Below are positions 35,083 to 64,000 of a stretch of DNA of 64,000 nt, in pieces; the first letter of the stretch is position 1; every line of letters starts with the position of its first letter. The notes below the pieces were generated by a model. It was not told the origin of the DNA and did not search any database. It saw only the letters and a list, made by a program, of their open reading frames with translations. The stretch is from Thermoanaerobaculia bacterium (GTDB lineage: Bacteria > Acidobacteriota > Thermoanaerobaculia > Multivoradales > SZUA-115), in assembly GCA_036274895.1 (NCBI GenBank), contig DASUEU010000057.1:5807-69806 (forward strand). Reading direction: 5' to 3'. Made by a program: the position numbers and the translations under genes.

Positions 35083-35469
35083 CTACCCAGCGGTCGGGTC
35101 CATCTGGGTCAAGCCCAGGATGTTGCCGTCCGGGTCGGTGACGTAGGCCAGCCAGGCGAGCCCGGGCACCGCCATCTTGGGCAGGGCGAGGCCGCCTCCC
35201 AGCTCGGCATTCTTGGCCAGGGCGGCGTCCAGGTCCTCGATCTGGACGGTGCAGATGAACGAGGTGACGGCCTGCCCCTGGACGGGGCCGGCGCCGCGCC
35301 GGGGCAGCAGGCCGCCGTTGATCCCTGGCTGATCAGGCGGGCCGGTCTGGATCAGCCAGTAGTCCATGGCGCCCATCCGGCTGAACGTCCACCCCAGCAG
35401 GGCGGAGTAGAAGTCAATCAGCACCTGCGGCTGCGACGCGTGGATCTCGAAGTGGGTGACACGGGCCAT
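35083..35469 (-). CDS. VOC (glyoxalase/bleomycin-resistance) family protein
   Basis: 128 aa with the typical VOC fold sequence (MARVTHFEIHASQPQVLIDFY...DPDGNILGL). Confidence 0.8.
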   Translation of the reverse strand: MARVTHFEIHASQPQVLIDFYSALLGWTFSRMGAMDYWLIQTGPPDQPGINGGLLPRRGAGPVQGQAVTSFICTVQIEDLDAALAKNAELGGGLALPKMAVPGLAWLAYVTDPDGNILGLTQMDPTAG

Positions 35470-38592: not shown

Positions 38593-38784
38593 TCGGCTGA
38601 TTCCTTTGGACCGGACGGCGGGCCAGTTCCCGTCGTCCAAGGCGAGGCGAAGTAGAATCACCAGAGAGTTTGTGAACACACCAAAAGATACCATGTGAAG
38701 CCAGTGCAGGGCATCTCGATTCGATGGCTGCGCGACCGTTGAGGCGGCACCCGCCCGCGGCGAGCCCGGCGCCGGCGTTCTCGG

Positions 38785-38802
38785 CTGCTCAAGACTGAGC
38801 AG
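38785..38802. promoter_or_regulatory. palindromic operator CTGCTCA-agac-TGAGCAG (copy 1 of 3)
   Basis: 135 nt upstream of the first ABM-like gene. Shares the identical 16-mer TGCTCAAGACTGAGCA with the site at 46639-46658. Same half-sites as the perfect palindrome at 51027-51050. Confidence 0.6.
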
Positions 38803-38936
38803 ATCCCCCCCGCTCGGGACGGTAGAGTCACCGCCAGCTCCGAAGCCGTTCGCCATCCCGAGCCGCGCACCCCTGGAATGCGGGTGCCGATACGGGTCTC
38901 TCTCTGCTTCGGGCGTTGCGGAGGTCCGTTTCAGCG

Positions 38937-39791
38937 ATGGTGCCCACAGCAGCCGCACAGACCACCCAGGAACCGGACCAGCTCCTGCATTCGGCGAGCT
39001 CCGGGCTGATCATCCACCGCACGGCACAGCTCAAGAACGAGTTCCGCTCGGGGGGGCGCGAGTTCGCCCGTGAGGTGGCCGAGCACGTCAACCGGACCCA
39101 GACCGGCAGGGCGACCCTCTTCGTCTACGAGGAAGCCTTCGGGGTGCACGACCGCATCCACTGGCTGATCCACCTCGGCGGCCTCACCGACTACCTGACC
39201 CTGATCACCATGTCGGTCAACGACGAGGGCTTCCGCAACATCTTCTTCCGCGAGCGCATCGCCCCTGAGAAGGGCGGTGGCGATTGGTCGCGGATGTTCC
39301 CGGATGGCTCACTGTCGGAGCGGGTGTTGATCCCGCTGCGGCGACCGGGGGCCAACGGGACGGACGGCGCCGCCTTCCCGCTACCGGCTGGCCGGCAAAC
39401 GACGCTGCCCGCCGAGCAGATCCTGCATTCGGCCAACGCCGGGATGCTGGTCGAGCGGGTCGGCATCGCCCGCTACGAGGCCCGCGACCAGGCCCGCGAG
39501 CTGGCCCTCGAGGTGGCGGAGCGGGTCAACCTCGGTCTGCCGGGAGTGGCCTCGATGTTCGTCTACGAGGAGATGTTCGGCCGCCAGGACTGCCTGCACT
39601 GGCTGATCCACCTGCGCGCCCTCGACGCCTACACCGCCTTCTTGGCCTTCGTCCAGGAGGACGCCGGCCTGGCCGAGATCCTGCGCCGTTCGGGCCCCGG
39701 GGGCGGTTGGAGCTGGTTCCTCGACGGCAGCCTCGAAGAGACGGTGCTGGTGCCGCAGTTCGCCGGCAGCTCGGGCACCGTCAAGCGCTGA
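38937..39791 (+). CDS. tandem-duplicated ABM/Dabb-like (dimeric alpha+beta barrel) domain protein
   Basis: Two internal ~125-aa repeats sharing LHSA..G...R...ARE.A.EVAE.VN...FVYEE.FG..D..HWLIHL...DGSL.E.VL.P. The FVYEE..G....HWL segment resembles the antibiotic-biosynthesis-monooxygenase fold. GGAGG RBS. Family assignment is tentative. Confidence 0.55.
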   Translation: MVPTAAAQTTQEPDQLLHSASSGLIIHRTAQLKNEFRSGGREFAREVAEHVNRTQTGRATLFVYEEAFGVHDRIHWLIHLGGLTDYLTLITMSVNDEGFRNIFFRERIAPEKGGGDWSRMFPDGSLSERVLIPLRRPGANGTDGAAFPLPAGRQTTLPAEQILHSANAGMLVERVGIARYEARDQARELALEVAERVNLGLPGVASMFVYEEMFGRQDCLHWLIHLRALDAYTAFLAFVQEDAGLAEILRRSGPGGGWSWFLDGSLEETVLVPQFAGSSGTVKR

Positions 39792-39821
39792 ACACGTCCA
39801 CCGTGAGCCCCGGGAGCCGTG

Positions 39822-40706
39822 ATGAACCCTGCCCAACCCTCAACCGCCGGCGCCGCGCCGGTGATCCCCCCGGCCTTCCATCAAGCCGCCCAGCCCGTGG
39901 AGGCCCTGCTCAACTCGGCCAGCTGCGGACTGATCATCCAGCGCACCGGCCAGATCAAGGGCAAGTACCGCTCCGAGGGCCGCCAGTTCGCCCGCGAGCT
40001 GGCCGAGCACATCAACGAGAGGCAGCTCGGACGGGCCACGGTGTTCGTGTACGAGGAGACCTTCGGCGTCAAGGAGCGACTCCACTGGCTGATCCATCTG
40101 CGCTCGCTGCGCGACTATCCCACCATGGTGGCGATGGGCGCGGCCGACGAGAAGTTCCGCGAGCTGATCCTCCGCGAGCGGCTGCCGGGGGGAGGGCGGT
40201 GGGACGAGATCTTCCTGGACGGCTCCCTGCGCGAGACCGTGCTGGTGCCCCAGCGCTGGCTCTCCCCCGGCCGCGACGGCGCGCCCTCCGGCACGGCCCT
40301 CGACCAGCTCGGGCCCGGCGAGACGACGTTCCTCCACTCCGCCACCGCCAGCTCGATCGTGCAGGTCTCCGGCATCCTGCGCCACGAGCACCGGCGCAGC
40401 GGCCGGGAGGTCGGCCGCCGCCTGGCGGAGCGCCTCAACCGCGAGCAGGCCGGCGCCATCACGGCCCTGGTGTACGACGAGGCCTTCGGCGCGGGCGAGC
40501 GGGTCCACTGGCTCCTCCACCTCTCGGCCCTGAGCGACCACGCCGAGCTGGCGCCCTACCTCGGGCCGGAGCCGGTGGCCGAGGGCAGCGGTGCCGGCCC
40601 GGCGGCGGAGCCGTCCTGGCGCGAGCTGTTCGTCGAGGGCTCCCTTTCCGAGGTCGCGTTGACCCCTCAATTCTGGGGCCTGTACGCTACGAAAAAGCCA
40701 TCGTGA
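39822..40706 (+). CDS. paralogue of the preceding tandem ABM/Dabb-like protein
   Basis: Same two-repeat architecture (…GRATVFVYEETFGVKERLHWLIHL… and …ITALVYDEAFGAGERVHWLLHL…), giving four domain copies across two adjacent genes. Confidence 0.55.
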   Translation: MNPAQPSTAGAAPVIPPAFHQAAQPVEALLNSASCGLIIQRTGQIKGKYRSEGRQFARELAEHINERQLGRATVFVYEETFGVKERLHWLIHLRSLRDYPTMVAMGAADEKFRELILRERLPGGGRWDEIFLDGSLRETVLVPQRWLSPGRDGAPSGTALDQLGPGETTFLHSATASSIVQVSGILRHEHRRSGREVGRRLAERLNREQAGAITALVYDEAFGAGERVHWLLHLSALSDHAELAPYLGPEPVAEGSGAGPAAEPSWRELFVEGSLSEVALTPQFWGLYATKKPS

Positions 40707-40732
40707 GCGTGCCCGACACCCAGGAGGGGATC

Positions 40733-41200
40733 ATGACCGAAGCGCTGGTGGAGGCCTGGCTGGTCAACAACCGAGTCAACCTGATGATTCTCCGCGAGCT
40801 GGGGGACGAGGCCCTGGCCGCCAGCCTCTCCTCGCGGGGCGGGCGCACCGTGGGCGAGCAACTGGCCCACGTGCTCGAGGTGCGGCGGGCCAAGGTGGAG
40901 GCGGCGGACAAGGCCCTCGCCGCGACCATCCCCACGGTCGGCCGCGAGCAGGGCCACGACCGGGAAGCCCTGCTCGCCGGCTTCGAGAAGAGCGGCGAGG
41001 CGGTGGCCGAGCTGATCCGCAAGAGCGCAGGCGAGGGCGGGCAGGTCAAGGGCTTCCGCCGCGGCATCGTGGTCCTGATCGCCTACCTGATCGCTCACGA
41101 CGCCCACCACCGGGGACATCTGTTCCTGACCCTCAAGCAGTCCAAAGTCGGGATCCCGGCCTCGCTCCGCATGGAGATCTGGGCCTGGAACCAGATCTGA
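40733..41200 (+). CDS. DinB/YfiT-like (DinB_2) metal-dependent protein
   Basis: Motifs GEQLAHVLEV and IAHDAHHRGH (His-triad). ~155 aa. CAGGAGGGGATC-ATG start. Confidence 0.7.
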   Translation: MTEALVEAWLVNNRVNLMILRELGDEALAASLSSRGGRTVGEQLAHVLEVRRAKVEAADKALAATIPTVGREQGHDREALLAGFEKSGEAVAELIRKSAGEGGQVKGFRRGIVVLIAYLIAHDAHHRGHLFLTLKQSKVGIPASLRMEIWAWNQI

Positions 41201-41203
41201 GCC

Positions 41204-42619
41204 ATGGCTCCGGCGCTCCTCGACGACACGTCGTCCGCGAAGCCGCGGGAGCGCCCTGCGAGCGCGGCCGCCGGCCGGGCCCGGCCGCCCGGGCCCCGCG
41301 GGTTGCCCCTGCTGGGCTGCCTGCCGGCCTTCCGCCGGGATCCCCTCGCCTTTCTGCAACGCACCGCACGCGAGCACGGAGACGTCGCCTTCTTCCGCCT
41401 CGGCACCCAGAACGTTTTCCTCTTGAACGACCCCGAGCTGATCCGCGAGGTGCTGGTGCAGCGACAGGGCCTGTTCACCAAGAGCCGGGGCCTGCGCCGC
41501 GCCCGCGCCCTCCTCGGAGACGGCCTGCTGACCAGCGAGGGCGAGGTGCACCACCGCCACCGCCGCCTGGTGCAGCCGGCCTTCCACCCGGACCGCCTCC
41601 AGGGCTATGCCGAGGTGATGGTCGACGCCGCCCTCGAGACGGGCCGGCGCTGGCGGGCCGGCGAGTCGGTCGAGGTCTTCTCCGAGATGGCGCGCATCAC
41701 CCTGGGGGTGGTCGGCACCACCTTGTTCAGCGTCGAGGTGGAGGAGGAGGCCCAGGAGATCGGCACCGCCCTGACCAGCGTGCTCGAGATGTTCAGCATC
41801 ATGATGCTGCCCTTCTCGGGCCTGGTCGAGCGCCTGCCCTTGCCGGTGGTGCGGCGTTTCCACGCTGCCCGCAGCCTCCTCGATGGGCGTATGGAGCGCT
41901 TGATCCACGAGCGCCGGGAGAGCGGCAGGGACTCCGGCGACCTGTTGTCGATGCTGCTCCTGGCCCAGGACGAGGCGGGGGGTGGGCTGTCGGACCGCGA
42001 GGTGCGCGAGGAGGCCTTGACCCTCTTCCTGGCCGGCCACGAGACCACCGCCAACGCCCTCTCCTGGACCCTCTACCTGCTGGCGTCGAACCCCGACTGC
42101 GAGGCACGGCTGCACCGGGAGCTCGAGGAGGTGTTGGGCGGGCGCCGGCCGACCTTCGCCGACCTGCCCCGCCTGTCCTGGGCCGAGCACGTGCTGGCCG
42201 AGGCCATCCGCCTCTACCCGCCGGCCTGGGCGATCGGGCGCTCGGCCAGGGAAGCCCTCGAGCTGGGCGGCTTCGAGGTGCCGGCGGGCAGCACCGTGAT
42301 CCTGAGCGCCTACGTCACCCAGAACGACCCCCGCTACTTCCCCCATCCCGAGGTCTTCGATCCCGAGCGCTGGCAGCCAGGGCCGAGGGCGGAGCGGCCG
42401 AAGTTCGTCTACTTCCCCTTCGGTGGCGGTGCCCGGACCTGCATCGGCGAGCGCTTCGCGATGATGGAGGGCGTGCTGATCCTGGCCACGCTGGCCCAGC
42501 GCTGGCGGCTGCGGCTGGCGCCGGGCCAGACCGTCGAGCCGATGCCGCTGATCAACACACTGCGGGCTCGGGGTGGCTTGCCGCTCCGGCTCGAAGCACG
42601 CGGCGCGCCAGCTCCCTGA
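41204..42619 (+). CDS. cytochrome P450
   Basis: AGHETT I-helix, ExxR, heme loop FGGGARTCIG. Ends with GLPLRL as in many P450s. Confidence 0.9.
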   Translation: MAPALLDDTSSAKPRERPASAAAGRARPPGPRGLPLLGCLPAFRRDPLAFLQRTAREHGDVAFFRLGTQNVFLLNDPELIREVLVQRQGLFTKSRGLRRARALLGDGLLTSEGEVHHRHRRLVQPAFHPDRLQGYAEVMVDAALETGRRWRAGESVEVFSEMARITLGVVGTTLFSVEVEEEAQEIGTALTSVLEMFSIMMLPFSGLVERLPLPVVRRFHAARSLLDGRMERLIHERRESGRDSGDLLSMLLLAQDEAGGGLSDREVREEALTLFLAGHETTANALSWTLYLLASNPDCEARLHRELEEVLGGRRPTFADLPRLSWAEHVLAEAIRLYPPAWAIGRSAREALELGGFEVPAGSTVILSAYVTQNDPRYFPHPEVFDPERWQPGPRAERPKFVYFPFGGGARTCIGERFAMMEGVLILATLAQRWRLRLAPGQTVEPMPLINTLRARGGLPLRLEARGAPAP

Positions 42620-43757
42620 CGTTGGCCTCGGCGCGGAACACCGAGAGGTGGTCGCCGTGCGGCTCGACGTAGAGGGTCGCGTCGGCCAGACGGGCCGCCA
42701 CCCGGCGCGAGCCTTCGGGGTGGGCGGTGCCGTCGTCCTGGCTGGTGATCACCGCCACCGGCTGTCGCACGCGCGGCAGCAGCGCCTCGACCTCGAAGCT
42801 CATGATGCTGCCGTTCAAGAGCCCGTAACGATGGGTCAGCTCGGCATTGGCCCAGGGGTAGAGGACGTGGGCGGCGGGCTGGGGCAGGGGCTTGCCGGCC
42901 AGGGCGTGGCACATCGCCCCCCGCACCGCGGCGGCGCTCTCCCGGCTCTCGGCGGCCATCGCCAGCAGCGACCCGAGGTCGTGCTGGTGATCGGTCTTCG
43001 GGCCGCCGGCACCGAGCTCGTAGTCGCCGTGCCAGAGGCTCAAGGAGTGGACCCTCGCCGGCCAGGCCGCCGCCGCGGCGAGGGCCAGGACCGCCCCACC
43101 GCACATCCCGAGGGCATGGGCCGAGGCCACGCCGAAGCGATCCATCACCGCCACCAGGTCGGCCGCCTGGGCCGAGACGTCCCGCCCCCGGCGGTCGAAG
43201 GCGGCGTCCGCGAGGAAGAGGCCCCGGCTCTCCCAGGTGAGGACGTAGGCGTCACGGGCAAGGAAGTGTAGCCAGGCCAGCGACAGCCCCACCGGCATGC
43301 CGCAGGGGGGCACCAGCACCACGGCCGGCCGGCTGCGCTCGCCCAGGGCATAGGCCCGAAGCGGCGTACCGTCGAAGGAGCTCAGGTGCACGGGCTCCGG
43401 GCGCCCTTCGCCGGGGTCGGCGAGCGCGCGCCGGGTGCTCCGCTCGAAGGCCTCGACGCTGGGCCAGGCAGGCCGGGCCTCGTCGAGGCTCGCCAGGGCG
43501 CTCTCCAGGCCCTCGCTCAGCACCCGGGCGAAAAGCCTGGCCCCGGGATCGGCGGGCGTCTCGCCCAGCGTGAGCCGGGGGGCCGGAAGGCCCCGGCAGA
43601 CCGCGTCGAGGCACGCCTGGAGCGGGGCGGCCTCCCCGCCCTGGGCCAGGGCGAGGGGCAGGTGGAGGGGCCGGGGCAGGGCATCGATCAGCGGCCGCAG
43701 GGCCAGCACCGAGCGGGCCAGGAGCAGGGCGAGGTCCACGCCCGGGGCGAGGGCCAT
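42552..43757 (-). CDS. alpha/beta-fold hydrolase/acyltransferase with Cys nucleophile (G-M-C-G-G elbow)
   Basis: Nucleophile elbow HALGMCGGAVLA, acid near SQDDG, His in EPHGDHLS. 3' end overlaps the convergent P450 by 68 nt. First Met lies 10 nt after the PhyH-family gene stop. Confidence 0.7.
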   Translation of the reverse strand: MALAPGVDLALLLARSVLALRPLIDALPRPLHLPLALAQGGEAAPLQACLDAVCRGLPAPRLTLGETPADPGARLFARVLSEGLESALASLDEARPAWPSVEAFERSTRRALADPGEGRPEPVHLSSFDGTPLRAYALGERSRPAVVLVPPCGMPVGLSLAWLHFLARDAYVLTWESRGLFLADAAFDRRGRDVSAQAADLVAVMDRFGVASAHALGMCGGAVLALAAAAAWPARVHSLSLWHGDYELGAGGPKTDHQHDLGSLLAMAAESRESAAAVRGAMCHALAGKPLPQPAAHVLYPWANAELTHRYGLLNGSIMSFEVEALLPRVRQPVAVITSQDDGTAHPEGSRRVAARLADATLYVEPHGDHLSVFRAEANVRELARRVLRAGAASHPEPAVC

Positions 43758-43767
43758 CGGCGTCCCC

Positions 43768-44718
43768 CTAGCGGTTCGGGAACGGGTAGCCGCGGGTGGT
43801 GGCGGTGGCGATGCGGTTGTAGCGGTAGCGATCCTCGCCCGCCACCACCACGGCGCCGTAGCGGTCCAGCCGCACCGTGCCGCCGTACTCCTCGATGGCC
43901 TCGCTGTCCGGGTAGACGTGGACCCGGGTGGGCACGTAGCGCGCCGCGAAGCCCATGCGCATCTCCTGGGTCTTGCCGCGGTGGGGATGGGAGGCGTGCA
44001 TCAGGGTCGACCAGAAGAGGATGGCCTGGCCCGGCCGCATCACCATCGACACCGCATGATCCTCGTCCGGCTTCCAGTCGGGATCGATCTGCAGCTCGCG
44101 GTAGTCGTAGCCGAAGAAGCCGCGCCGGATGCCGTCCTTCTCGACCTGGTTGATCGACTCCGGGCGGTAGTGCATCTCCTTCTGCTCGTCGTAGAACATG
44201 GTGTGGTGGGTGCCGGGGATGAACTGCAGGCAGGCAGTGTCTTCGTTGGCCTCGGTGAAGGCCGTCCACACCGTGATGGTGCCGCCGAAGTCCTCGTGAC
44301 CGTCCGGCCAGACGATCTGCGGCTGGCCCGAGGCGTTGGCGAAGGTGTCCGCCTGATGCCAGTCGGTGCCCTCGTCGCCGGGGTACTTGGGGAAGAACTC
44401 GGTGCGCCAGCACAGCACGTCCGGCCCCAGGATGCTGACCACGCGGTCGACGATCTCCGGACGGCAGATGTGGTCGGCGAAGAACTGGCAGTCGAGGTGG
44501 CGGTCGTAGTTGCCGATGTTGGTCGCCCCCGACTGGGCGACGCTCTCCTGGTAGACGGCAGCGGAGCGGTCCATCAGCTGCAAGCGCTGGCGCCGCCAAT
44601 GGGCCTTCATCTCCTCGACCTCGTAGACCGTGAACGGCCCGAGGTAGCCGTTGCGATGAAAGGCGGCGAGCTCCGCCGGGCTAAGAGAGAACTTCGGCTG
44701 CGTCAGGGTGTCCAGCAT
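43768..44718 (-). CDS. PhyH-family Fe(II)/2-oxoglutarate-dependent oxygenase, HQAD variant of the facial-triad motif (possible halogenase-like)
   Basis: PhyH-like core with WHQADTF where hydroxylases have WHQD (H-x-D). The A at +2 matches the H-x-A pattern of SyrB2/CmaB-type halogenases. A distal His is in [10 protein letters not shown]. The start may be a later Met, since the ORF overlaps the A-PCP gene by 38 nt. Confidence 0.7.
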
Positions 44719-46552
44719 GGGGAGTCTCCGAGAAGAGGGGTGGGGCGGTGGCGAGCTGGGCCTCGACGCAGGCGGCCAGGCGGGCCACCGTGGCCTGGTC
44801 GCCCAGCTCGCTGCCGTTCAAGGACACGCCGAAGGCGTCGTTGGTCAGGCGCAGCAGGCGCACGAAGGCCATCGAGGTCGCGCCGTGGTCGAAGAGGTCG
44901 TCGTGCGGGGAGAGGCCCGGCAGCCGCAGCACCTCTGCGGCCAGGCCTAGCAGGGTGCGCTCGGTGCTGCCGATCGGCCCGCCGGGGGCGGAGGGTGGCG
45001 CGGTCCCGGCCAACGCCGCGAGGGCCCGGCGGTCCACCTTGCCGTGGGCGGTCAGGGGGATCGCCCCCACCACGTGGACCTCCGCCGGCACTTGGTGGGC
45101 CGGCAGCTCGCGGGCCGCCCGCGTGCGCAGCTCCTGGCTCAAGCGGGCGGCGCCGCCGTCGAGCCCAGAGCCGGGCCGGGGCACGACGGCGGCGAGCAGC
45201 CGCACGTCGCCGCCGCCGAGGTCGAGGCTCGTCACCACCGCTCTCGCCACCTCGGGATGGGCCGCCAGGCAGGCTTCGACCTCGGAAGGCTCGATGCGGA
45301 AGCCCCGCACCTTGAGCTGGTCGTCGAGCCGGCCCAAGGTGCGCAGCTCACCGTCGGCGCCGCGCACGGCGCGGTCCCCGGAGCGGTAGGCGCGAGCCCC
45401 CGAGGCGCCGGTGCCGGCTGCGGGCAGGAACCGCTCGGCGGTCAGGCCCGGGCGGCCGAGATAGCCGCGGGCGAGGCCCGGGCCGGTGACGTGGAGCTCG
45501 CCGGGTGTGCCGGCGCTCACCGCGAAGCCCCGGGGGTCGAGCAGCGAGACCCCGAGGTCGCCGAGAGGCTGGCCGATCGGGCTCGCCGCGTCGCCGTCGA
45601 GGTCCTCGCGGAGGATCCTCCGCCAGGTGACGTGCACGGTGGTCTCGGTGATGCCGTAGAGGTTGGCCACCTGGGGCCGCTGGTCGCCCCAGCGCTCGAA
45701 CCACGGGGCGAGCAGGCGAGGGTCGAGGGCCTCGCCGCCGAAGACCAGGGCCCGCAGCCGCGGGGCGAAGGGGGTCTCGGCGTGGAGCTCGGCGTCGAGC
45801 AGGCCGTGGAAGGCCGACGGTGTCTGGCTCAGGATCGTCACCCCGTTCTCGGCCAGGAGGTGGCAGAGGCGCCCGGGCTGGCGGGCCACCTCGAGGGGCA
45901 CGATCACCAGCCGGCCGCCGTAGAGCAGGGCTCCCCAGATCTCCCAGACCGAGAAGTCGAAGCTCGCCGAGTGGCAGAGGGACCAGACGTCCTCCGGGCC
46001 GAAGTGGAGGTGTCGGTCCGCCTGCTCGAACAGGCGCACCACGTTGCGGTGGGAAACCATCACCCCCTTGGGCTCGCCGGTCGAACCCGAGGTGTAGATC
46101 ACGTAGGCCAGGTTGTCGTCCGCCGGCCTGCCTGCCCCCGCGGCCGCCGGCGGAGCCGGGCCCGGGGCGTCGTCGGCCGTCAGGACTTCGACGCCCAGGG
46201 CGGCGAAGCGTGGGCCGAGGTCGGCGGTCGTGACCACCCGGCGCACCCGCGAGTCCGCCAGCAGGTAGCGCAGGCGGGCCTCCGGGTAGGCGGGATCGAG
46301 GGGCAGGTAGGCACCGCCCGCCTTGAGGATGGCGAGCAGGCCGACGATGAGCTCGAAGCCCCGCTCGGCGGCCAGGCCGACGAGCACCTCGGGCCCGACC
46401 CCGGCGTCCCGCAGGCGTGCCGCCAGCCCTTCGGCCCGGTCGTCGAGCTCCCGGTAGGTGAGGTCTCGGTGGCCGAACGAGAGGGCGACGCGGCGGGGGA
46501 ACTCCTCCGCCCGCCGTTCGAAGATCTGGTGAAGACACTGACCGGATGCCAT
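44681..46552 (-). CDS. free-standing NRPS adenylation-PCP didomain (loading A-T)
   Basis: A-domain cores [52 protein letters not shown] and [21 protein letters not shown]. Confidence 0.85.
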
Positions 46553-46638
46553 GTCGGCTCACTTCCTGGAGGCGCTGGCCCAGAGCACGGGAGAGGCTGG
46601 TTGTCGCTGCACGATTGTGGGAAAGCTGCTCCGAGCCG

Positions 46639-46658
46639 TCTGCTCAAGACTGAGCAAG
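46639..46658. promoter_or_regulatory. palindromic operator TCTGCTCA-agac-TGAGCAAG (copy 2 of 3)
   Basis: In the 91-bp gap upstream of the A-PCP gene. Overlaps the AT-ER stop codon (tca at 46644-46646). Confidence 0.6.
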
Positions 46659-48950
46659 CCGTGGGGGATCCGAGCGCCCGAGCAGACCCTCGAGCCGCCG
46701 GCCGAGCACTGTGGCGGCGCCCCGCATCAGGTGCTCGGCAATGCGCTCGACGTGGCGCTCCCGCCAGGGCTCGAGGGGGGTGCCGCGCACCGAGCGGTTG
46801 AAGGCGCCCATCGCCGGCCCGCAGTGGATCTGATAGTTCACCCGCTCCGGCGAGCCGGCGAGGGCCCAGCGGCTGGTGTGGGCGAAGTACCAGTTGAAGA
46901 CCAGGGCCATCTTGTGGCGGGGGTCCCGCTCGGCCTGCTCGATCTGCTCCGGTCGGGTGCTCGCCAGGTGGTCGCAAGTCTCGCTCCAGACCTGGGCGAG
47001 CGAGCGCTTGAAGTAGCGCTCCTCGAGCGTCTTCCGGGTCCCTTGGTCGAGCTCGTCGAGCGATCGATGCTGGCGGTAGAGCTGGAAGAGCTTGTTGGCG
47101 CGGGCTGCGAAGAGGGTGCCGCGGCTCGCCACCTGCACGCGGGCCCCCAGCTCGAACATGTCACCGGCGGCGGTGTAGGCGGTGTCCTGCACGTCGAGCT
47201 GGGCGAGCAGGTCCTTGACCGCCTCGGAGGTGCCGGCCTCGGGGGAGCACTGGTTGACCGAGCCGGTCAGCACGAAGTCCGCCCCCAGCACGAACGCCGC
47301 CGCCGCGGCCTCGGGGGAGCCGATGCCGCCGGCGGCACCCAGGGGGACGTCGGCCGGGCAGGCCCCCCGCTCCCGCATCTCCTCGCGCAGCTGGAGCATG
47401 GCCGGCATCAGGGCGTAGGCGCGCCCGGCGTCGGTGTGGCCGCCCGAGTCGGCCTCCACGCACAGCTCGCTCGCCACCGGCAGGCAGCGCGCCACCGCCG
47501 CTTCCTCGGCCCCGAGGCCGCCGCTGGCCACCAGTTGGGCCAGCACTTCTTCGGGCGGGGGGCGCAGGAAGAGGGTGGCGATCTCGGGCCGTGACACCTT
47601 GGCCAGCACCCGGCGCCCGGCCACCGGCTCACCGGCGGCCGTGAAGCGGGCGCCGCGGAAGCGGCAGCGCACCAGCGGCGCGGTGATGCGCAGGTAGGCG
47701 GCGGCCTCGACGAAGCGCACGTCGTGGGCGAGCAGCAGCTCGACGGTCGCCGCCTCGAGCTCCGGCTCGTCGAGGGGGTAGAGCAGGTTGGCGCCCCAGC
47801 TCGCCCGGGGCCCCAGCTCGCGCTTCAGCTCCTGGAGCGCCGCCTCGATCGCCGCCAGGCCGAGGCCGCCGGTGCCGAAGAAGCCCATCAGCCCGTTTCT
47901 CGCCAGGCGGATCAGCAGCCGGGTCGAGGCGATGCCCTGGTACATCGAGCCGGCGAGGTAGGCGTAGCGCAACCCATAGTCGCGCCGGAAGCTCGCCGAG
48001 CCCAGCCGCTCGGCGGCGAGGCACGGGTCGGGCGGCGGTTCCACCTCCGGGGCGGCCACGGCGACGGGCCGAGGTGCCAGGCGGGGCGGCGAGGGCGGTG
48101 CCGGGAAGGCCGAGCGCCAGAGCTTGGTGAGCACCCCTCCGGGGCCGAGCTCCTCGACCTCCTCGACCCCCTGCTCCTGCAGGTAGCGCATCGCCTCCCA
48201 CCAGCGCACCGGCGAGCGGATCTGCGCGCTCAGCAGGGCCGGGAGCTGGTCGGCCCGGTAGGGCCTGGCGGTGACGTTGGCGATCACCGGCAGGGTGGGA
48301 GGGGCGAAGCGAGCACGCCCCAGCACCTCCTCGAAGGCGTGCGAGGCTTCGACCATGGAGCGCGAGTGGAAGGCGGCGGCAACCGCCAGGGGCAGGGTTC
48401 GCACCGTCCGCCCCTCCGGTGCCGCTGCCACCAGCCGGGGCGCCAGGCGGCTGAGCGCCTCCCCCGGCCCCGCGAGCACGATCTGGTCGGGGGCGTTGTA
48501 GTTGGCGACGTCGACCGAGTCGATGCCGCTCGCCGCCAGCGCCTCGGTGAGTCGCTCGGCAGTGAGGCCGATCACCGCCATCATGGCGCCGCCGCTCGCC
48601 GCGGCCATCAGCTCGGAGCGGGCCGTCACCAGAAGCAGGCCGGTCTCGAGATCGAAGCAGCCGGCGGCGAAAAGGGCGTTGAGCTCGCCCAGGCTGTGGC
48701 CGGCCAGGAAGTCCGGCCGCTCGCCGTTCGCCCGGCGTTCGAGGTAGCTGAGGGCGTTGACCAGGAAGAGGGCCGGCTGGGCCCAGCGGGTGGAACGCAG
48801 GCGATCCCCGGGGTCTTCGAGGCAGAGCTCCCTGAGGGAGGTGCCGGCGATGCGGTCGGCCAGCGCGCACTCCTCCGGGAAGCGCTCGAAGAGCCCCGCT
48901 CCCATGCCGCGGCGCTGTGAGCCCTGGCCGGGGAAGAGGAAGGCCCTCAC
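46644..48950 (-). CDS. trans-acting acyltransferase fused to trans-enoylreductase (AT-ER didomain, PksE/LnmG-like)
   Basis: AT motifs FLFPGQGSQ and GHSLGE. C-terminal PfaD/nitronate-monooxygenase-like ER. Preferred start is the GTG overlapping the ECH stop (GTGA). An alternative ATG at 48981-48983 would overlap ECH by 37 nt. Confidence 0.85.
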   Translation of the reverse strand: MRAFLFPGQGSQRRGMGAGLFERFPEECALADRIAGTSLRELCLEDPGDRLRSTRWAQPALFLVNALSYLERRANGERPDFLAGHSLGELNALFAAGCFDLETGLLLVTARSELMAAASGGAMMAVIGLTAERLTEALAASGIDSVDVANYNAPDQIVLAGPGEALSRLAPRLVAAAPEGRTVRTLPLAVAAAFHSRSMVEASHAFEEVLGRARFAPPTLPVIANVTARPYRADQLPALLSAQIRSPVRWWEAMRYLQEQGVEEVEELGPGGVLTKLWRSAFPAPPSPPRLAPRPVAVAAPEVEPPPDPCLAAERLGSASFRRDYGLRYAYLAGSMYQGIASTRLLIRLARNGLMGFFGTGGLGLAAIEAALQELKRELGPRASWGANLLYPLDEPELEAATVELLLAHDVRFVEAAAYLRITAPLVRCRFRGARFTAAGEPVAGRRVLAKVSRPEIATLFLRPPPEEVLAQLVASGGLGAEEAAVARCLPVASELCVEADSGGHTDAGRAYALMPAMLQLREEMRERGACPADVPLGAAGGIGSPEAAAAAFVLGADFVLTGSVNQCSPEAGTSEAVKDLLAQLDVQDTAYTAAGDMFELGARVQVASRGTLFAARANKLFQLYRQHRSLDELDQGTRKTLEERYFKRSLAQVWSETCDHLASTRPEQIEQAERDPRHKMALVFNWYFAHTSRWALAGSPERVNYQIHCGPAMGAFNRSVRGTPLEPWRERHVERIAEHLMRGAATVLGRRLEGLLGRSDPPRLAQS

Positions 48951-49729
48951 CGAGTCGGGTCCCCCGGGGGCGAGGTTTCCCACGGCAGCTTGCGCTCACG
49001 GACGAAGGCGGCGATGTTGCGCCGCACCAGCGGGGAGGCCATCAGCTCGGCCAGCTCGGCGAGGGCCGCCCGCTCGACCTCGGGCGAGAGAGACCACAGC
49101 GAGCAGAAGTGGCGCTTGGCCCGACCGAGGGTCGTGGGATCGATCTTCGACAGGCGGAAGGCCAGCCTGCGGATGGGCTCGTCGGGGTCTTCGGTCCGTT
49201 GGTCCACCAGGTGGATGCGCTCGGCCTCGGCGGCGCCGATCGGCAGGGTGGCGAGGGTCATGGCGTAGGCCTTCTGGAAGCCGACCCTGCGGATCAGGAA
49301 GGGCAGCACGCAGCAGGGCAGGAGGCCCCACAGCGCCTCGGGGAGGCTGAACTGGCTGCGCTCGGTGGCGAAGACGAAATCGCAGGCCACGGCCAGCCCG
49401 ACGCCGCCGCCGGCGGCGCGGCCGTCGACTTTGGCCACCACCACCCGGGGCAGCCGGGTCAGGCGCTCGAGCAGCGCCAGGAAGGCGGCACCACCGTCGC
49501 TGCCGCCGTCCTCGGCGGCCGCCTGCTCGAAGTCCATGCCGGTCGAGAACACGCCGTCCCGCCCCTCGAGCACCACCATCCGGCAGGCGGTCGTGGCCTC
49601 GGCCTGGTCCAGGGCCGCCTGGATCTCGCGCAGCAAGGCCGGGGTGAGGCCGTTGCCCTGGGCCGGCCGGTCCAGGGTCAGGGTGAGGACGGCGGGCGCG
49701 GTGGCGCGGACGAGCAGGCCCTCTGCCAC
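48947..49729 (-). CDS. enoyl-CoA hydratase/isomerase (crotonase) of a beta-branching cassette
   Basis: Crotonase oxyanion region VVAKVDGRAAGGGVGLAVACDFVFA...PEALWGLLP. Likely GTG start at 49727-49729, with GGAG 6 nt upstream, immediately after the HMGS stop. The long ORF-track N-terminal extension is junk. Confidence 0.75.
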   Translation of the reverse strand: MAEGLLVRATAPAVLTLTLDRPAQGNGLTPALLREIQAALDQAEATTACRMVVLEGRDGVFSTGMDFEQAAAEDGGSDGGAAFLALLERLTRLPRVVVAKVDGRAAGGGVGLAVACDFVFATERSQFSLPEALWGLLPCCVLPFLIRRVGFQKAYAMTLATLPIGAAEAERIHLVDQRTEDPDEPIRRLAFRLSKIDPTTLGRAKRHFCSLWSLSPEVERAALAELAELMASPLVRRNIAAFVRERKLPWETSPPGDPTR

Positions 49730-49731
49730 CT

Positions 49732-50964
49732 TCAGCTCCACTCGTAGAGGCGGTGGTACTCGTCGATGGCGCGCAGCACCAGCAGGCCCTGGCCGGCCAT
49801 GGTGCGGTCGTAGATCGCCTGGTAGGGAGCGGTGTCGACCGCGAGGGAGCGGGGGGCGCCACGGCTCTGCGCCGAGAGCTCGGCGATGGTCTCGTACTCC
49901 TCCATGTCGAGCTCGTAGCGCTCCGCGACCCGCTCCGCAAGGCCCAGGGCGGCGAGCGCCGCCGGGGCCCCGGGAGAGATGACGCCGCTGTAGAACTCGG
50001 CGGCACAGCCCGAGCCGTAGGAGAACAGGCCGATGCGCTTCGGCGCCTCGAAGCTCGCCCCCTCGATCAGCGAGCAAAGGGCGAGGTAGAGCGCCGCCGA
50101 GTAGATGTTGCCGATGCGCATACAGTAGGAGAGCGAAGGCGCGACGCGGGCCGCGAAGTCGCGCTCGATCGCCTCCGGGCCGAGGCCCCCGAGCTTGCGC
50201 AGCAGCATGCGATGGGCGCCCTTGACCATGCCGGCGAAGGGAGTGTGGAAGGCGAGGTAGTCGAAGGTGGTCCGCACGTCCGCGCCCCGCACCCGTTCCT
50301 GGTAGGCGAGCACGCATTGCTCCAGGCAGTGCAGGTAGGAGAGCAGGGAGAGGTCCGAGTCCCCGGCCTCGAGGTCGGGGGAGGGGCGGCAGGTGTCCAT
50401 CACCTCGTAGCTGTAGCAGCCGCTGGCGCCGGCATCGACCTCCAGGACCTCGGCCCTCTCGCCCACCAGCATGGCGACGGCGCCCGCGCCCTGCGAGGGT
50501 TCCCAGTAGGTGGAGCGGGCCACCCGGCTGGCGGTGTCGGTGGCCACCACCAGGGCTTTGACCCCGGACCGGCCACTCCGGGCCAGCAGGCCGAGCGCGG
50601 TCTGCAGGGCCGCGGTGCCGCCGTAGCAGGCATGCTTGACCTCGAAGGAGCGGCAGCGGCGGCTGAGGCCGAGATGGTGATGGACGTAGGTGCTGAGCGG
50701 CTTGCCCTGATCGAGGCCGGACTCGGTGCCGACGATCAGCAGTTCGATCGCAGCGAGCTCACCGGCCGAGAGGTTGCGCAGCAGCGGCCGGGCAGCGTTT
50801 ACGGCGTTGGTGACCGGGTCCTCGCAGGGCAGATTGACCGACTTCTCGACCATCATCAGGTTCGAGAAACGCTTGAGGTCCAGCGTTCGCGCGGCGAATA
50901 GCCGCTCGACACCCAGGCGCAGCCTGCCCGGATAAACGTTGATGGCTTCGATGCCGGTGGTCAT
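49732..50964 (-). CDS. HMG-CoA synthase-like (PksG/HCS family) beta-branching enzyme
   Basis: HMGS fold with active-site region SFEVKHACYGGTAAL plus His/Asn residues. 410 aa. Confidence 0.9.
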   Translation of the reverse strand: MTTGIEAINVYPGRLRLGVERLFAARTLDLKRFSNLMMVEKSVNLPCEDPVTNAVNAARPLLRNLSAGELAAIELLIVGTESGLDQGKPLSTYVHHHLGLSRRCRSFEVKHACYGGTAALQTALGLLARSGRSGVKALVVATDTASRVARSTYWEPSQGAGAVAMLVGERAEVLEVDAGASGCYSYEVMDTCRPSPDLEAGDSDLSLLSYLHCLEQCVLAYQERVRGADVRTTFDYLAFHTPFAGMVKGAHRMLLRKLGGLGPEAIERDFAARVAPSLSYCMRIGNIYSAALYLALCSLIEGASFEAPKRIGLFSYGSGCAAEFYSGVISPGAPAALAALGLAERVAERYELDMEEYETIAELSAQSRGAPRSLAVDTAPYQAIYDRTMAGQGLLVLRAIDEYHRLYEWS

Positions 50965-51026
50965 CGGCGGGCACGGCGCGCAGAGGGGAGGCGTCGGGCT
51001 GGGAAGCTAAGCGAGCGGCGGGGCAC

Positions 51027-51050
51027 CGTCTGCTCACTTTTGAGCAGACG
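51027..51050. promoter_or_regulatory. perfect 10-N4-10 palindrome CGTCTGCTCA-cttt-TGAGCAGACG (copy 3 of 3)
   Basis: In the divergent promoter region between the HMGS (minus) and Crp/Fnr regulator (plus) genes. An extra TGCTCA half-site lies near 51227. Confidence 0.65.
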
Positions 51051-51290
51051 GACTTTTGGACGAAGAAAGAGAATTCCGAGCGAACCAGAGAGGCATTGGG
51101 AGCTGAAGGACGAGCCGGATGTGTCGGTCCGATCGACTCGCGGTGGCGCAAGAGCCTTCTTCGAAAGAAACAGAGAAGCATTTCATTCGCAAAGAACAAC
51201 AAGTAGTGAATTCTTGCGTGAGAGATGCTCAGCCTTTGAACGATCCGGTGGGAGCGCGCGTCGGCGGGCTGCGAGGGAAGGAGACCTGAG

Positions 51291-51968
51291 ATGTCGCGTT
51301 CCGTGGCAGGTCCTGTTTCCCTGGGCGACTCGGTCAGCGCCTTGATCCGTCGGGGAGTGTTGCGCGCCTCGACGCTCAAGCTGGCCAAGCACGCGACGAT
51401 CTACAGCAGCGGTGATCCAGGCACCAGCATGTACGTGGTCGAAGAGGGTTGGGTGAAGATCGTCACCCACTCGCGGGCGGGCAAGGACTGCCTGCTGGCC
51501 ATCCGCACCAACGGCGACCTCTTCGGTGAGCAGGCCCTGCTCGGCGAGGTCCGCGAGGAGACGGCGACCGCCATGTCGCCGACCACCCTCAAGCGGGTGA
51601 GCCGCGACTCCTTCATCGGCAGCGTGGCCCAGGAGGAGCTGCTCGAGGCCTTGCTGCGCTATTCGCTCACCCGCCTCTCCGAGCAGCAAGACATCATCAC
51701 CGACTTCGTCACCGCCGACAGCGAGCAGCGGCTGGCCTCGACGCTGCTGCGTCTGGGCAGGAAGCTCGGCCGCCGGGCACCGAGCCAGATCCGCATCGAA
51801 GAGCGCATCTCCCAGGAGGACCTGTCACGAATCGTCGGCACCACCCGTTCCCGTGTGGGTTTCTTTCTCAAGCGGTTCGAGGCCCTGGGACTGATCGAGA
51901 CGAGCAAGAACTGCTTCCTGGCCATCAACGAGCAGCGCCTGTGTGAGTTCGTGGAGCGGGAGGCCTGA
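51291..51968 (+). CDS. Crp/Fnr-family transcriptional regulator (cNMP-binding domain plus C-terminal HTH)
   Basis: GGAAGGAGA RBS. cNMP-binding beta-roll. C-terminal HTH EERISQEDLSRIVGTTRSRVGFFLKRFEALGLIE. Confidence 0.85.
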   Translation: MSRSVAGPVSLGDSVSALIRRGVLRASTLKLAKHATIYSSGDPGTSMYVVEEGWVKIVTHSRAGKDCLLAIRTNGDLFGEQALLGEVREETATAMSPTTLKRVSRDSFIGSVAQEELLEALLRYSLTRLSEQQDIITDFVTADSEQRLASTLLRLGRKLGRRAPSQIRIEERISQEDLSRIVGTTRSRVGFFLKRFEALGLIETSKNCFLAINEQRLCEFVEREA

Positions 51969-51969
51969 G

Positions 51970-64000
<12,031 letters not shown>

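Follow-up and report, generated by a model that had tools for sequence, protein, structure and literature searches.

The stretch of DNA analysed here, hereafter called the window, comprises 64,000 nucleotides from a Thermoanaerobaculia metagenome-assembled genome (MAG) of the phylum Acidobacteriota (contig DASUEU010000057.1, positions 5,807 to 69,806). It holds a trans-acyltransferase (trans-AT) biosynthetic cluster of the nonribosomal peptide synthetase-polyketide synthase (NRPS-PKS) type, in which three copies of a two-fold symmetric element, termed the dyad (consensus cTGCTCA-N4-TGAGCAg in a 22-bp frame), accompany the gene of a Crp/Fnr-family regulator (crp), of which they are the candidate operators. 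Because the GC content of the window is 64-79%, genes were called by third-position GC (GC3) frame analysis, and they were annotated by Pfam, NCBIfam and PDB sequence searches. Three operons surround the dyads together with crp and a megasynthase gene, which is probably co-transcribed with crp (Table 1). The third operon encodes an HMG-CoA-synthase homolog (HMGS), an enoyl-CoA hydratase (ECH) and a trans-AT fused to a PfaD-type enoyl reductase (AT-ER). Two genes that a sequence-only reading of this DNA had labelled ABM are DUF6039 genes according to Pfam; the remainder of its gene map and its placement of the sites, including that of site 2 at the AT-ER stop, are correct by GC3 frame analysis and Pfam.

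The exact sequence TGCTCA-N4-TGAGCA occurs in the window with core starts at 38786, 46641 and 51031. All three copies are where the sequence-only reading had placed them, and the exact dyad is absent elsewhere in the 64 kb, where that reading had noticed no other copy. Sites 1 and 2 share the 16-mer TGCTCAAGACTGAGCA with the spacer AGAC, and the core of site 3 is TGCTCACTTTTGAGCA with the spacer CTTT. The 7-N4-7 half-site pair that had been described for all copies holds at sites 1 and 3, but site 2 carries one mismatch (TGAGCAA for TGAGCAG). Similarly, the segment 51027-51050 had been called a perfect 24-bp palindrome; its complementary arms, 10-11 bp each and reaching 51026-51051, are indeed perfect, whereas the 4-nt spacer CTTT is not palindromic. 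Site 2 lies 88 nt from the A-PCP start, on its upstream side.

Table 1. Positions of genes, dyads and predicted -10-like hexamers in the window (TSS, transcription start site)
Feature	Position	Strand	Remarks
Operon 1: DUF6039, DUF6039, DinB-like, cytochrome P450	38916..42619	+	GC3 frame and Pfam; contig L014 keeps the gene order
Operon 2: SyrB1-like A-PCP 44681-46552, SyrB2-type halogenase 43768-44718, alpha/beta hydrolase 42552-43757	42552..46552	-	Pfam
Operon 3: HMGS 49732-50964, ECH 48947-~49735, AT-ER 46644-48983	46644..50964	-	
crp, Crp/Fnr-family regulator	51291..51968	+	cNMP_binding and HTH_Crp_2; recognition helix TTRSRVGFFLKRF
NRPS-PKS megasynthase	51925..64000	+	PCP-C-A-Ox-PCP-KS...KS-KR-ACP-KS; overlaps the crp stop, runs off the window
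Dyad site 1	38783..38804	.	core 38786-38801, exact; gap upstream of 38916(+); putative operator of the DUF6039 operon
Dyad site 2	46638..46659	.	core 46641-46656, exact; straddles the AT-ER stop codon 46644-46646; putative operator of the halogenation cassette
Dyad site 3	51028..51049	.	core 51031-51046; divergent HMGS/crp gap; one putative operator for two divergent promoters
-10-like hexamer TAGAGT, DUF6039 operon	38823..38828	+	32 bp from site 1 centre; predicted TSS near 38835
-10-like hexamer CACAAT, A-PCP/halogenation cassette	46614..46619	-	32 bp from site 2 centre; predicted TSS near 46607
-10-like hexamer TAGCTT, HMGS-ECH-AT/ER	51004..51009	-	32 bp from site 3 centre; predicted TSS near 50997
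-10-like hexamer GAGAAT, crp and megasynthase	51069..51074	+	33 bp from site 3 centre; predicted TSS near 51081

In 100 dinucleotide-preserving shuffles, the exact dyad appears on average 0.01 times per 64 kb, and none of the 100 reached the three copies observed. With up to two mismatches allowed, just two more matches appear in the window (3128 and 36449); they are at chance level, both fall in coding sequence, and both are without the -10 hexamer of the real sites. A composite scan for the dyad plus this hexamer returned only the known sites and revealed no credible weaker site in the window. It may be asked whether the dyads are simply a generic genomic repeat, or chance occurrences, with no regulatory role, all the more because the scan covered only 64 kb of the genome. 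The surplus of three copies over 0.01 expected speaks against this, as do the lack of copies across the 38 kb upstream of the cluster, the failure to find a single exact copy in the control loci (553 kb) and the occurrence of copies at orthologous positions across phyla. The shuffles and the controls effectively refute such a reading, and its probability is negligible. Since their flanks are unconserved, the dyads are also not a mobile element.

The palindromes might instead work as nucleic-acid hairpins (terminators, attenuators, or RNA-processing or stability elements) and be no protein site at all. Six sites were folded as RNA, and only the extended site 3 beats its shuffles: it forms an 11-bp stem of -20 to -22 kcal/mol (z -3.9 and -4.9), and on the + strand a short T-run comes after it. 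Site 2, which lies between co-oriented genes, would in addition be transcribed by read-through. Sites 1 and 2 and the site 2 orthologues, on the other hand, fold no better than shuffled sequences (z +0.2 to -1.8), the dyads of sites 2 and 3 have no terminator-like site, and sites 1 and 3, being in gaps between divergent genes or upstream of a gene, have nothing to terminate. What is conserved is the sequence and not mere pairing, as one-mismatch copies are uncompensated (TGCTCA/TGGGCA, TGCGCA/TGAGCA), and a hairpin would leave the fixed distance to the -10 hexamers unexplained. The hairpin or terminator explanation was rejected as highly improbable. A scan of 38.4-52.0 kb with Rfam gave no match.

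The distance to these hexamers was analysed by counting offsets outward from the dyad centre at 23 sites, that is, on 46 sides. On 14 of the 46 sides, the hexamer TAnnnT begins at index 29 or 30, and it begins at none of the other offsets from 8 to 62; the relaxed form nAnnnT is found at index 29 or 30 on 30 sides, against a mean of 0.9 and a maximum of 3 per offset elsewhere. All 23 sites carry nAnnnT at this index on one or both sides, and in every case there is an operon in the direction of the hexamer. The centre of the dyad and the centre of the -10-like hexamer (TAnnnT or nAnnnT) are separated by 32-33 bp, so that, with the hexamer taken as -12 to -7, the dyad is located at about -41.5/-42.5, which is the class II position of CRP/FNR sites. 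The site logo consists of the symmetric core and an asymmetric G-A-C (25/27, 16/27 and 21/27). This triplet is confined to the promoter-proximal flank, 17-18 bp ahead of the hexamer, at the place that GAC would take in a TTGACA -35 element. No consensus sigma-70 promoter was detected in the gaps of sites 2 and 3, which were scanned for it. Of 29 predicted transcription starts, 28 are located 5' of the start codon, and leaderless transcripts are predicted for two actinomycete promoters. Credible intergenic copies with two mismatches also possess the hexamer, and chance matches in coding regions are mostly without it.

The class II geometry predicts positive regulation of the cluster, and the sign has to be weighed against a repressor model, in which the same Crp/Fnr regulator would sit at the dyads, over the -35 region, and block RNA polymerase as long as no effector releases it. 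Proteins of the CRP/FNR type are able to repress from overlapping sites. The dyad does overlap the -35 region, with the proximal GAC as the core of TTGACA, and RNA polymerase might use such promoters unaided, given the GAC and its spacing. A repressor, however, needs no single fixed helical position, whereas the spacing of 32-33 bp is kept at every site in two phyla. Moreover, the -35-like element matches at just three of six positions, no consensus promoter was detected in the scanned gaps of sites 2 and 3, relatives described in leinamycin-type clusters are activators, and it would be odd for a negatively autoregulated gene to be co-transcribed with the megasynthase. Repression thus appears unlikely, and activation from the class II position is preferred here.

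The same arrangement is found in related clusters. The three closest homologs of the regulator (71%, 80% and 55% identity) are encoded on the metagenomic contigs L001-L003, whose gene order is that of the window. A dyad is present in the HMGS/crp gap of all three contigs and, in the two that extend to the end of the AT-ER gene, there as well (L002:550 and L003:3902, both exact); a further site 2 orthologue, with one mismatch, lies at the AT-ER 3' end in L104:4694. The spacers of the orthologues are all different (GAAG, GAAT, ATTC, ATCT, AGAT, TTTT and CTAT), the half-sites are kept and the flanks diverge. When the HMGS/crp gaps of the four loci are aligned (53% mean identity, length differences of up to ~170 nt), no long block other than the dyad is invariant. 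On the crp side, L002 shows GAGAAT again at the identical offset, and L003 and L001 show TAATTT and GACAAT, respectively, each at a distance of 32 bp from the crp-side dyad centre; these two contigs have two separate dyads, one per direction, where the window shares the single site 3. The site 1 orthologue upstream of the DUF6039 operon in L014, a crp-less fragment of the same cluster type, is degenerate and retains one perfect half-site.

More distant homologs, at 46-51% identity, are encoded in L015 (Streptosporangium subroseum), L017 (Actinokineospora spheciospongiae), L099 (a MAG), L100 (Micromonospora tulbaghiae), L101 (Microbispora hainanensis) and L102 (Kitasatospora). All these loci contain dyads with at most one mismatch in intergenic gaps directly upstream of operons, and their cargo is drawn largely from the gene families of the window (DUF6039, A-PCP, PhyH-type, hydrolase, P450, ECH, AT-ER, HMGS and NRPS-PKS), to which some add LnmK-type beta-branching genes or MFS-DUF3224 pairs. 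Two hold-out loci, L103 (Dactylosporangium vinaceum) and L104 (Saccharothrix), were fetched only once the model was fixed; both the dyad and the predicted promoter spacing are present in them, with one copy at an AT-ER 3' end, and the gene set of L104 is that of the window. Every regulator homolog with the recognition helix TTRSRVG[FYH]FLK[RK]F among the three syntenic and eight Actinomycetota/MAG loci, the two hold-outs included, has the same dyad nearby. The comparison with orthologous clusters that the sequence-only reading had proposed as a check came out in its favour.

Some of these loci show variations of their own. In two actinomycetes, an exact dyad precedes an MFS transporter-DUF3224 pair (L015 31 and L017 6133), and the Actinokineospora locus has no PKS within 10 kb, so its regulon may be reduced to export or resistance genes. 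The Micromonospora tulbaghiae cluster contains two paralogous regulator genes (L100 4996-5577 and 10001-10735), each flanked by dyads; the two genes recall the pair lrgR1 and lrgR2 of the largimycin cluster. In L015, tandem dyads at 2197 and 2248, 51 bp or about five helical turns apart, lie upstream of a P450 gene; the upstream copy has two mismatches and no -10 hexamer of its own, and this may be a two-dimer (class III-like) promoter.

In the loci scanned, the dyad is almost confined to those of this regulator subfamily. The family loci (231.8 kb, 9.9% intergenic) contain 22 matches with at most one mismatch, 15 of them exact; 20 of the 22 are fully intergenic, and the remaining two span the stop codon of AT-ER (binomial P about 1e-18). 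The control loci with other Crp-type helices (553 kb) yield one match with one mismatch and no exact match (Poisson P about 3e-30). These controls comprise ten loci whose regulators have at most 33% identity and 79 metagenome loci with the helix TTRSRV[SN]FFMN[RK]F. A regulator search of genome contigs returned only relatives at 33% identity or less, which served solely as negative controls. A metagenome search with the helix fragment VGTTRSRV gave 80 loci; 79 of them fall in a sister subfamily (32-39% identity) and are virtually dyad-free. This subfamily (L020-L098) is very abundant in soil metagenomes (>600 stretches). A 1.3-kb fragment from the regulator's own subfamily (L019) has no dyad. 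Prediction of the motif from the fragment VGTTRSRV alone was rejected in view of the 79 sister loci.

It could be argued that a different factor, encoded elsewhere, binds the dyads, and that the Crp/Fnr gene nearby is only a bystander or acts on other targets. Binding by the regulator is a prediction, and the sister subfamily, which has a near-identical first half of the helix and no dyads nearby, illustrates that reasoning from helix to motif is imperfect. Nevertheless, among the 11 loci with a Crp-type gene (the window, L001-L003, L015, L017 and L099-L103), no other regulator gene is shared by all. A 22-bp 6-N4-6 dyad at about -41.5 is, moreover, the signature architecture of the Crp/Fnr family, and the dyad tracks the regulator across phyla and also into other cargo, namely the MFS-DUF3224 pair in L017. 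A separate factor is accordingly considered improbable, more so than repression, and the Crp/Fnr regulator is retained as the candidate binding protein.

The regulator belongs to the Crp/Fnr superfamily (PF00027, E 1.4e-18; PF13545, E 2.3e-11; both above the gathering cut-offs), with an N-terminal beta-barrel of the cNMP-binding type and a C-terminal Crp-type helix-turn-helix. A Thermoanaerobaculia MAG encodes a protein with 100% identity to the regulator. The closest solved structures are GlxR and CRP-Mt, to which both domains of the regulator align full-length (E about 1e-21 to 1e-19, PDB sequence search). It is not a CRP equivalog, as it scores 60 bits against the cut-off of 266 of NCBIfam NF008732, has the helix RSRVGF and not RETVGR, and is paired with the half-site TGCTC. 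Similarly, it is not an FNR equivalog (NF008365, 46 bits against 228): the operator differs, and no FNR-type N-terminal Cys cluster is found in the first 66 residues, which contain no Cys before residue 67. Nor is it an equivalog of the NtcA, FixK, PtrA, LdrP or CooA types (28-40 bits against NCBIfam cut-offs of 245-400). NCBIfam has no specific model for the regulator, for DUF6039 or for the DinB-like protein. The helix region VGTTRSRVG[FYH]FLK[RK]F is invariant in the subfamily, that is, in the window, the orthologues and the homologs at 46-51% identity. The Gly-Glu and Arg residues of the phosphate-binding cassette of GlxR and CRP-Mt align with conserved subfamily residues, and the residue after the Arg is variable. 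Since Gly-Glu and Arg are conserved, a cyclic nucleotide may be the effector. An assignment in which the Arg that binds the cyclic AMP (cAMP) phosphate is replaced by Glu was withdrawn, as HMMER aligns the subfamily-invariant R88 with the Arg of GlxR.

From the observed sites, their conservation, their association with the regulator subfamily and the constant distance between them and the -10-like hexamers, it is likely that the dyads are the operators of the regulator encoded at 51291-51968 and that it would act there by class II activation of four promoters, including that of its own gene. The co-conservation of regulator and dyad gives strong support to the sequence-only proposal that a cluster Crp/Fnr regulator, itself autoregulated, has its operators at three promoter regions. 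The conserved symmetric dyad, which co-occurs with the regulator gene, is predicted to be bound by a regulator dimer. Centred about 41.5-42.5 bp upstream of the start, each dyad would replace a proper -35 element, and the bound dimer would recruit RNA polymerase by a CRP/FNR-type class II mechanism. Site 1 would serve the DUF6039-DUF6039-DinB-P450 operon and site 2 the SyrB1/SyrB2-type halogenation cassette, and site 3 would drive HMGS-ECH-AT/ER leftwards and crp with the NRPS-PKS megasynthase rightwards. Since site 3 would also drive crp and, by probable co-transcription, the megasynthase gene, the regulator would activate its own gene by positive feedback, and the core of the cluster would be switched on as one unit.

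Several points weigh against this model. Binding by the regulator, the transcription starts and the sign of regulation are predictions, the -10 hexamers are called from sequence alone, and a site overlapping the -35 region could equally serve a repressor. The acidobacterial sites (four loci) are orthologous, so they are not independent of each other; those of the Actinomycetota are independent. Autoregulation is not universal, because the crp genes of L017, L099 and L102 have no dyad upstream. Specificity cannot be read from the VGTTRSRV residues alone, because sister loci that share them lack dyads. In addition, the likeness to the regulators LnmO and LrgR2, described below, rests on cluster context and description and not on sequence. 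Finally, an exact dyad in L104 (10728-10777) lies between crp and the megasynthase, where the predicted -10 hexamer and start fall inside the called open reading frame (ORF; start 10737); the start codon of this megasynthase is probably mis-called, or the dyad works differently.

A wider view, offered tentatively and considered doubtful, is that the regulator, the operator and the promoters form a self-contained, portable module that moved with leinamycin/largimycin-type cargo between Actinomycetota and Acidobacteriota. In such a module, the pocket of the regulator would sense a small molecule specific to the pathway, either an intermediate or the product, and not cAMP, and the positive feedback at site 3 would turn expression of the cluster into an all-or-none switch. 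The cargo may include the DUF6039, SyrB1-SyrB2 halogenation and P450 cassette and the MFS-DUF3224 exporters.

Among the genes of the predicted regulon, the protein first described as PhyH (43768-44718) is a non-haem-iron, Fe/2-oxoglutarate halogenase of the SyrB2/CytC3 type by match (E 1.9e-148), and it retains the His-x-Ala motif (WHQAD). Together with the SyrB1-like A-PCP and the alpha/beta hydrolase, it looks like a cassette for carrier-tethered amino-acid chlorination, comparable to LrgH of largimycin. The paired DUF6039 genes (38916-39791 and 39819-40706, + strand) are found again in L014, L015, L100 and L104. In both phyla, the pair accompanies the regulator and the halogenation/P450 cassette, and its genes clearly belong to the predicted regulon. 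One source labels a DUF6039 homolog 'chlorite dismutase', and no mention of DUF6039 was found in the literature searched. The predicted leader of the crp transcript is long, 210-300 nt (window 51081-51290, L003 8362-8627, L001 4531-4830); its sequence is poorly conserved and has no Rfam match. In the actinomycete loci L017, L099, L102 and L103, a small unannotated ORF of 64-101 aa lies directly 5' of crp.

To the left of site 1, a large ORF (35719-~38500, - strand) has a strong GC3 signal, an unusually low first-position GC and no Pfam match. Site 1 carries its hexamer on the right side only and, because none is present on the left, apparently does not drive this ORF. Just beyond the dyad regulon, a glyoxalase/bleomycin-resistance-like gene (35083-35469, - strand) is a candidate for self-resistance to a DNA-damaging product. 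The genes upstream of about 35 kb are unrelated, e.g., a GH94 enzyme, an efflux pump, peptidases and MacB. The cluster boundary near 38.7 kb suggested by the sequence-only reading is a weak claim, because the glyoxalase-like gene could still be a cluster member; 38.7 kb marks only the edge of the dyad regulon.

The mechanism itself is ordinary CRP/FNR biology, and the operator sequence, the link between helix and operator and the conservation across Acidobacteriota and Actinomycetota appear to be new. The helix R-S-R-V-G-F with the half-site TGCTCA adds a DNA-specificity class to the CRP/FNR recognition code, in a promoter design retained in two phyla. A defined operator with a fixed class II layout predicts the regulon genes in any such cluster, including those of uncultured Acidobacteriota, offers a ready-made set of co-regulated promoters for refactoring, and ties the unstudied DUF6039 and DinB-like proteins functionally to halogenation/P450 tailoring. 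Leinamycin-family clusters are typically silent in the laboratory, and largimycin needs forced expression of its activator (PMC9396626). Expression of the cognate Crp-type gene is a suggested activation strategy for silent clusters.

In comparison with known members of the superfamily, CRP and FNR recognize TGTGAT-N4-ATCACA and TTGAT-N4-ATCAA, respectively, and a single 22-bp frame accommodates the two boxes. The contrast drawn in the sequence-only reading, of an FNR-like as opposed to a CRP-like geometry, is thus no real distinction, because in this frame the dyad reads TGCTC-N6-GAGCA, and the regulator, which is without the FNR-type Cys cluster, is closer to GlxR and CRP-Mt. As at E. coli class II CRP/FNR promoters, the site is a 22-bp two-fold symmetric 6-N4-6 element whose outer TG is that of CRP TGTGA; as where a site lies at -41.5 there, it is 32-33 bp from the -10 element, centre to centre, with a poor or absent -35, and a single site can serve two divergent promoters. 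Unlike the sites of E. coli CRP and FNR, the half-site is TGCTCA and not TGTGA(T) or TTGAT, and the recognition helix has R-S-R-V-G-F in place of R-E-T-V-G-R (CRP) or V-E-T-I-S-R (FNR). The regulon is one biosynthetic cluster and not global, and the starts here are predicted only. CRP proper uses the recognition residues R180/E181/R185 at TGTGA-N6-TCACA, and FNR proper has an N-terminal Cys cluster for a [4Fe-4S] centre and an E-xx-SR recognition helix. GlxR of Corynebacterium glutamicum and CRP-Mt of Mycobacterium tuberculosis are global, cAMP-responsive regulators that bind TGTGA-N6-TCACA via an R-E-T-V helix; in the window regulator, the Glu of this helix is replaced by Ser, and the operator differs.

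The cluster context points to the leinamycin family. The regulator gene lies inside a leinamycin-type trans-AT NRPS-PKS cluster, with AT-ER, ECH, HMGS and a PCP-C-A-Ox-PCP-KS... megasynthase; since the window ends inside the megasynthase, the family hallmarks LnmK and the DUF-SH didomain are outside it. In L099 and L103, the subfamily members stand beside genes in the order LnmK_N_HDF-ACP-HMGS-ACP-KS-TE. The leinamycin cluster of Streptomyces atroolivaceus has LnmO, described as its pathway-specific positive regulator of the Crp/Fnr type (Huang et al. 2016, as cited in PMC6001450 and PMC7105598). The largimycin cluster of S. argillaceus, a leinamycin-family cluster with the SyrB2-type halogenase LrgH and two HMGS sets (PMC9396626, PMC13200230), is silent unless the cluster-specific activator gene lrgR2 is expressed (PMC9396626). 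PMC9396626 assigns LrgR2 to no protein family, and the likeness of LrgR2 to the window regulator lies in the role of a cluster-specific activator. No description of an operator for LnmO/LrgR regulators was found in the searchable literature, nor was the combination of leinamycin, Crp and palindrome in the literature searched, and neither LnmO, LrgR2 nor S. atroolivaceus is named among the 120 matches listed in the third homolog search. The host differs, being a Thermoanaerobaculia MAG here and an actinomycete for LnmO and LrgR2. As in the clusters of these two regulators, the window combines a trans-AT NRPS-PKS that has an HMGS beta-branching cassette, AT-ER, ECH and an oxidase-containing hybrid with a Crp/Fnr gene, and its SyrB2-type halogenase parallels LrgH. 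By this analogy, the activator sign predicted for the window regulator would agree with that of LnmO and LrgR2.

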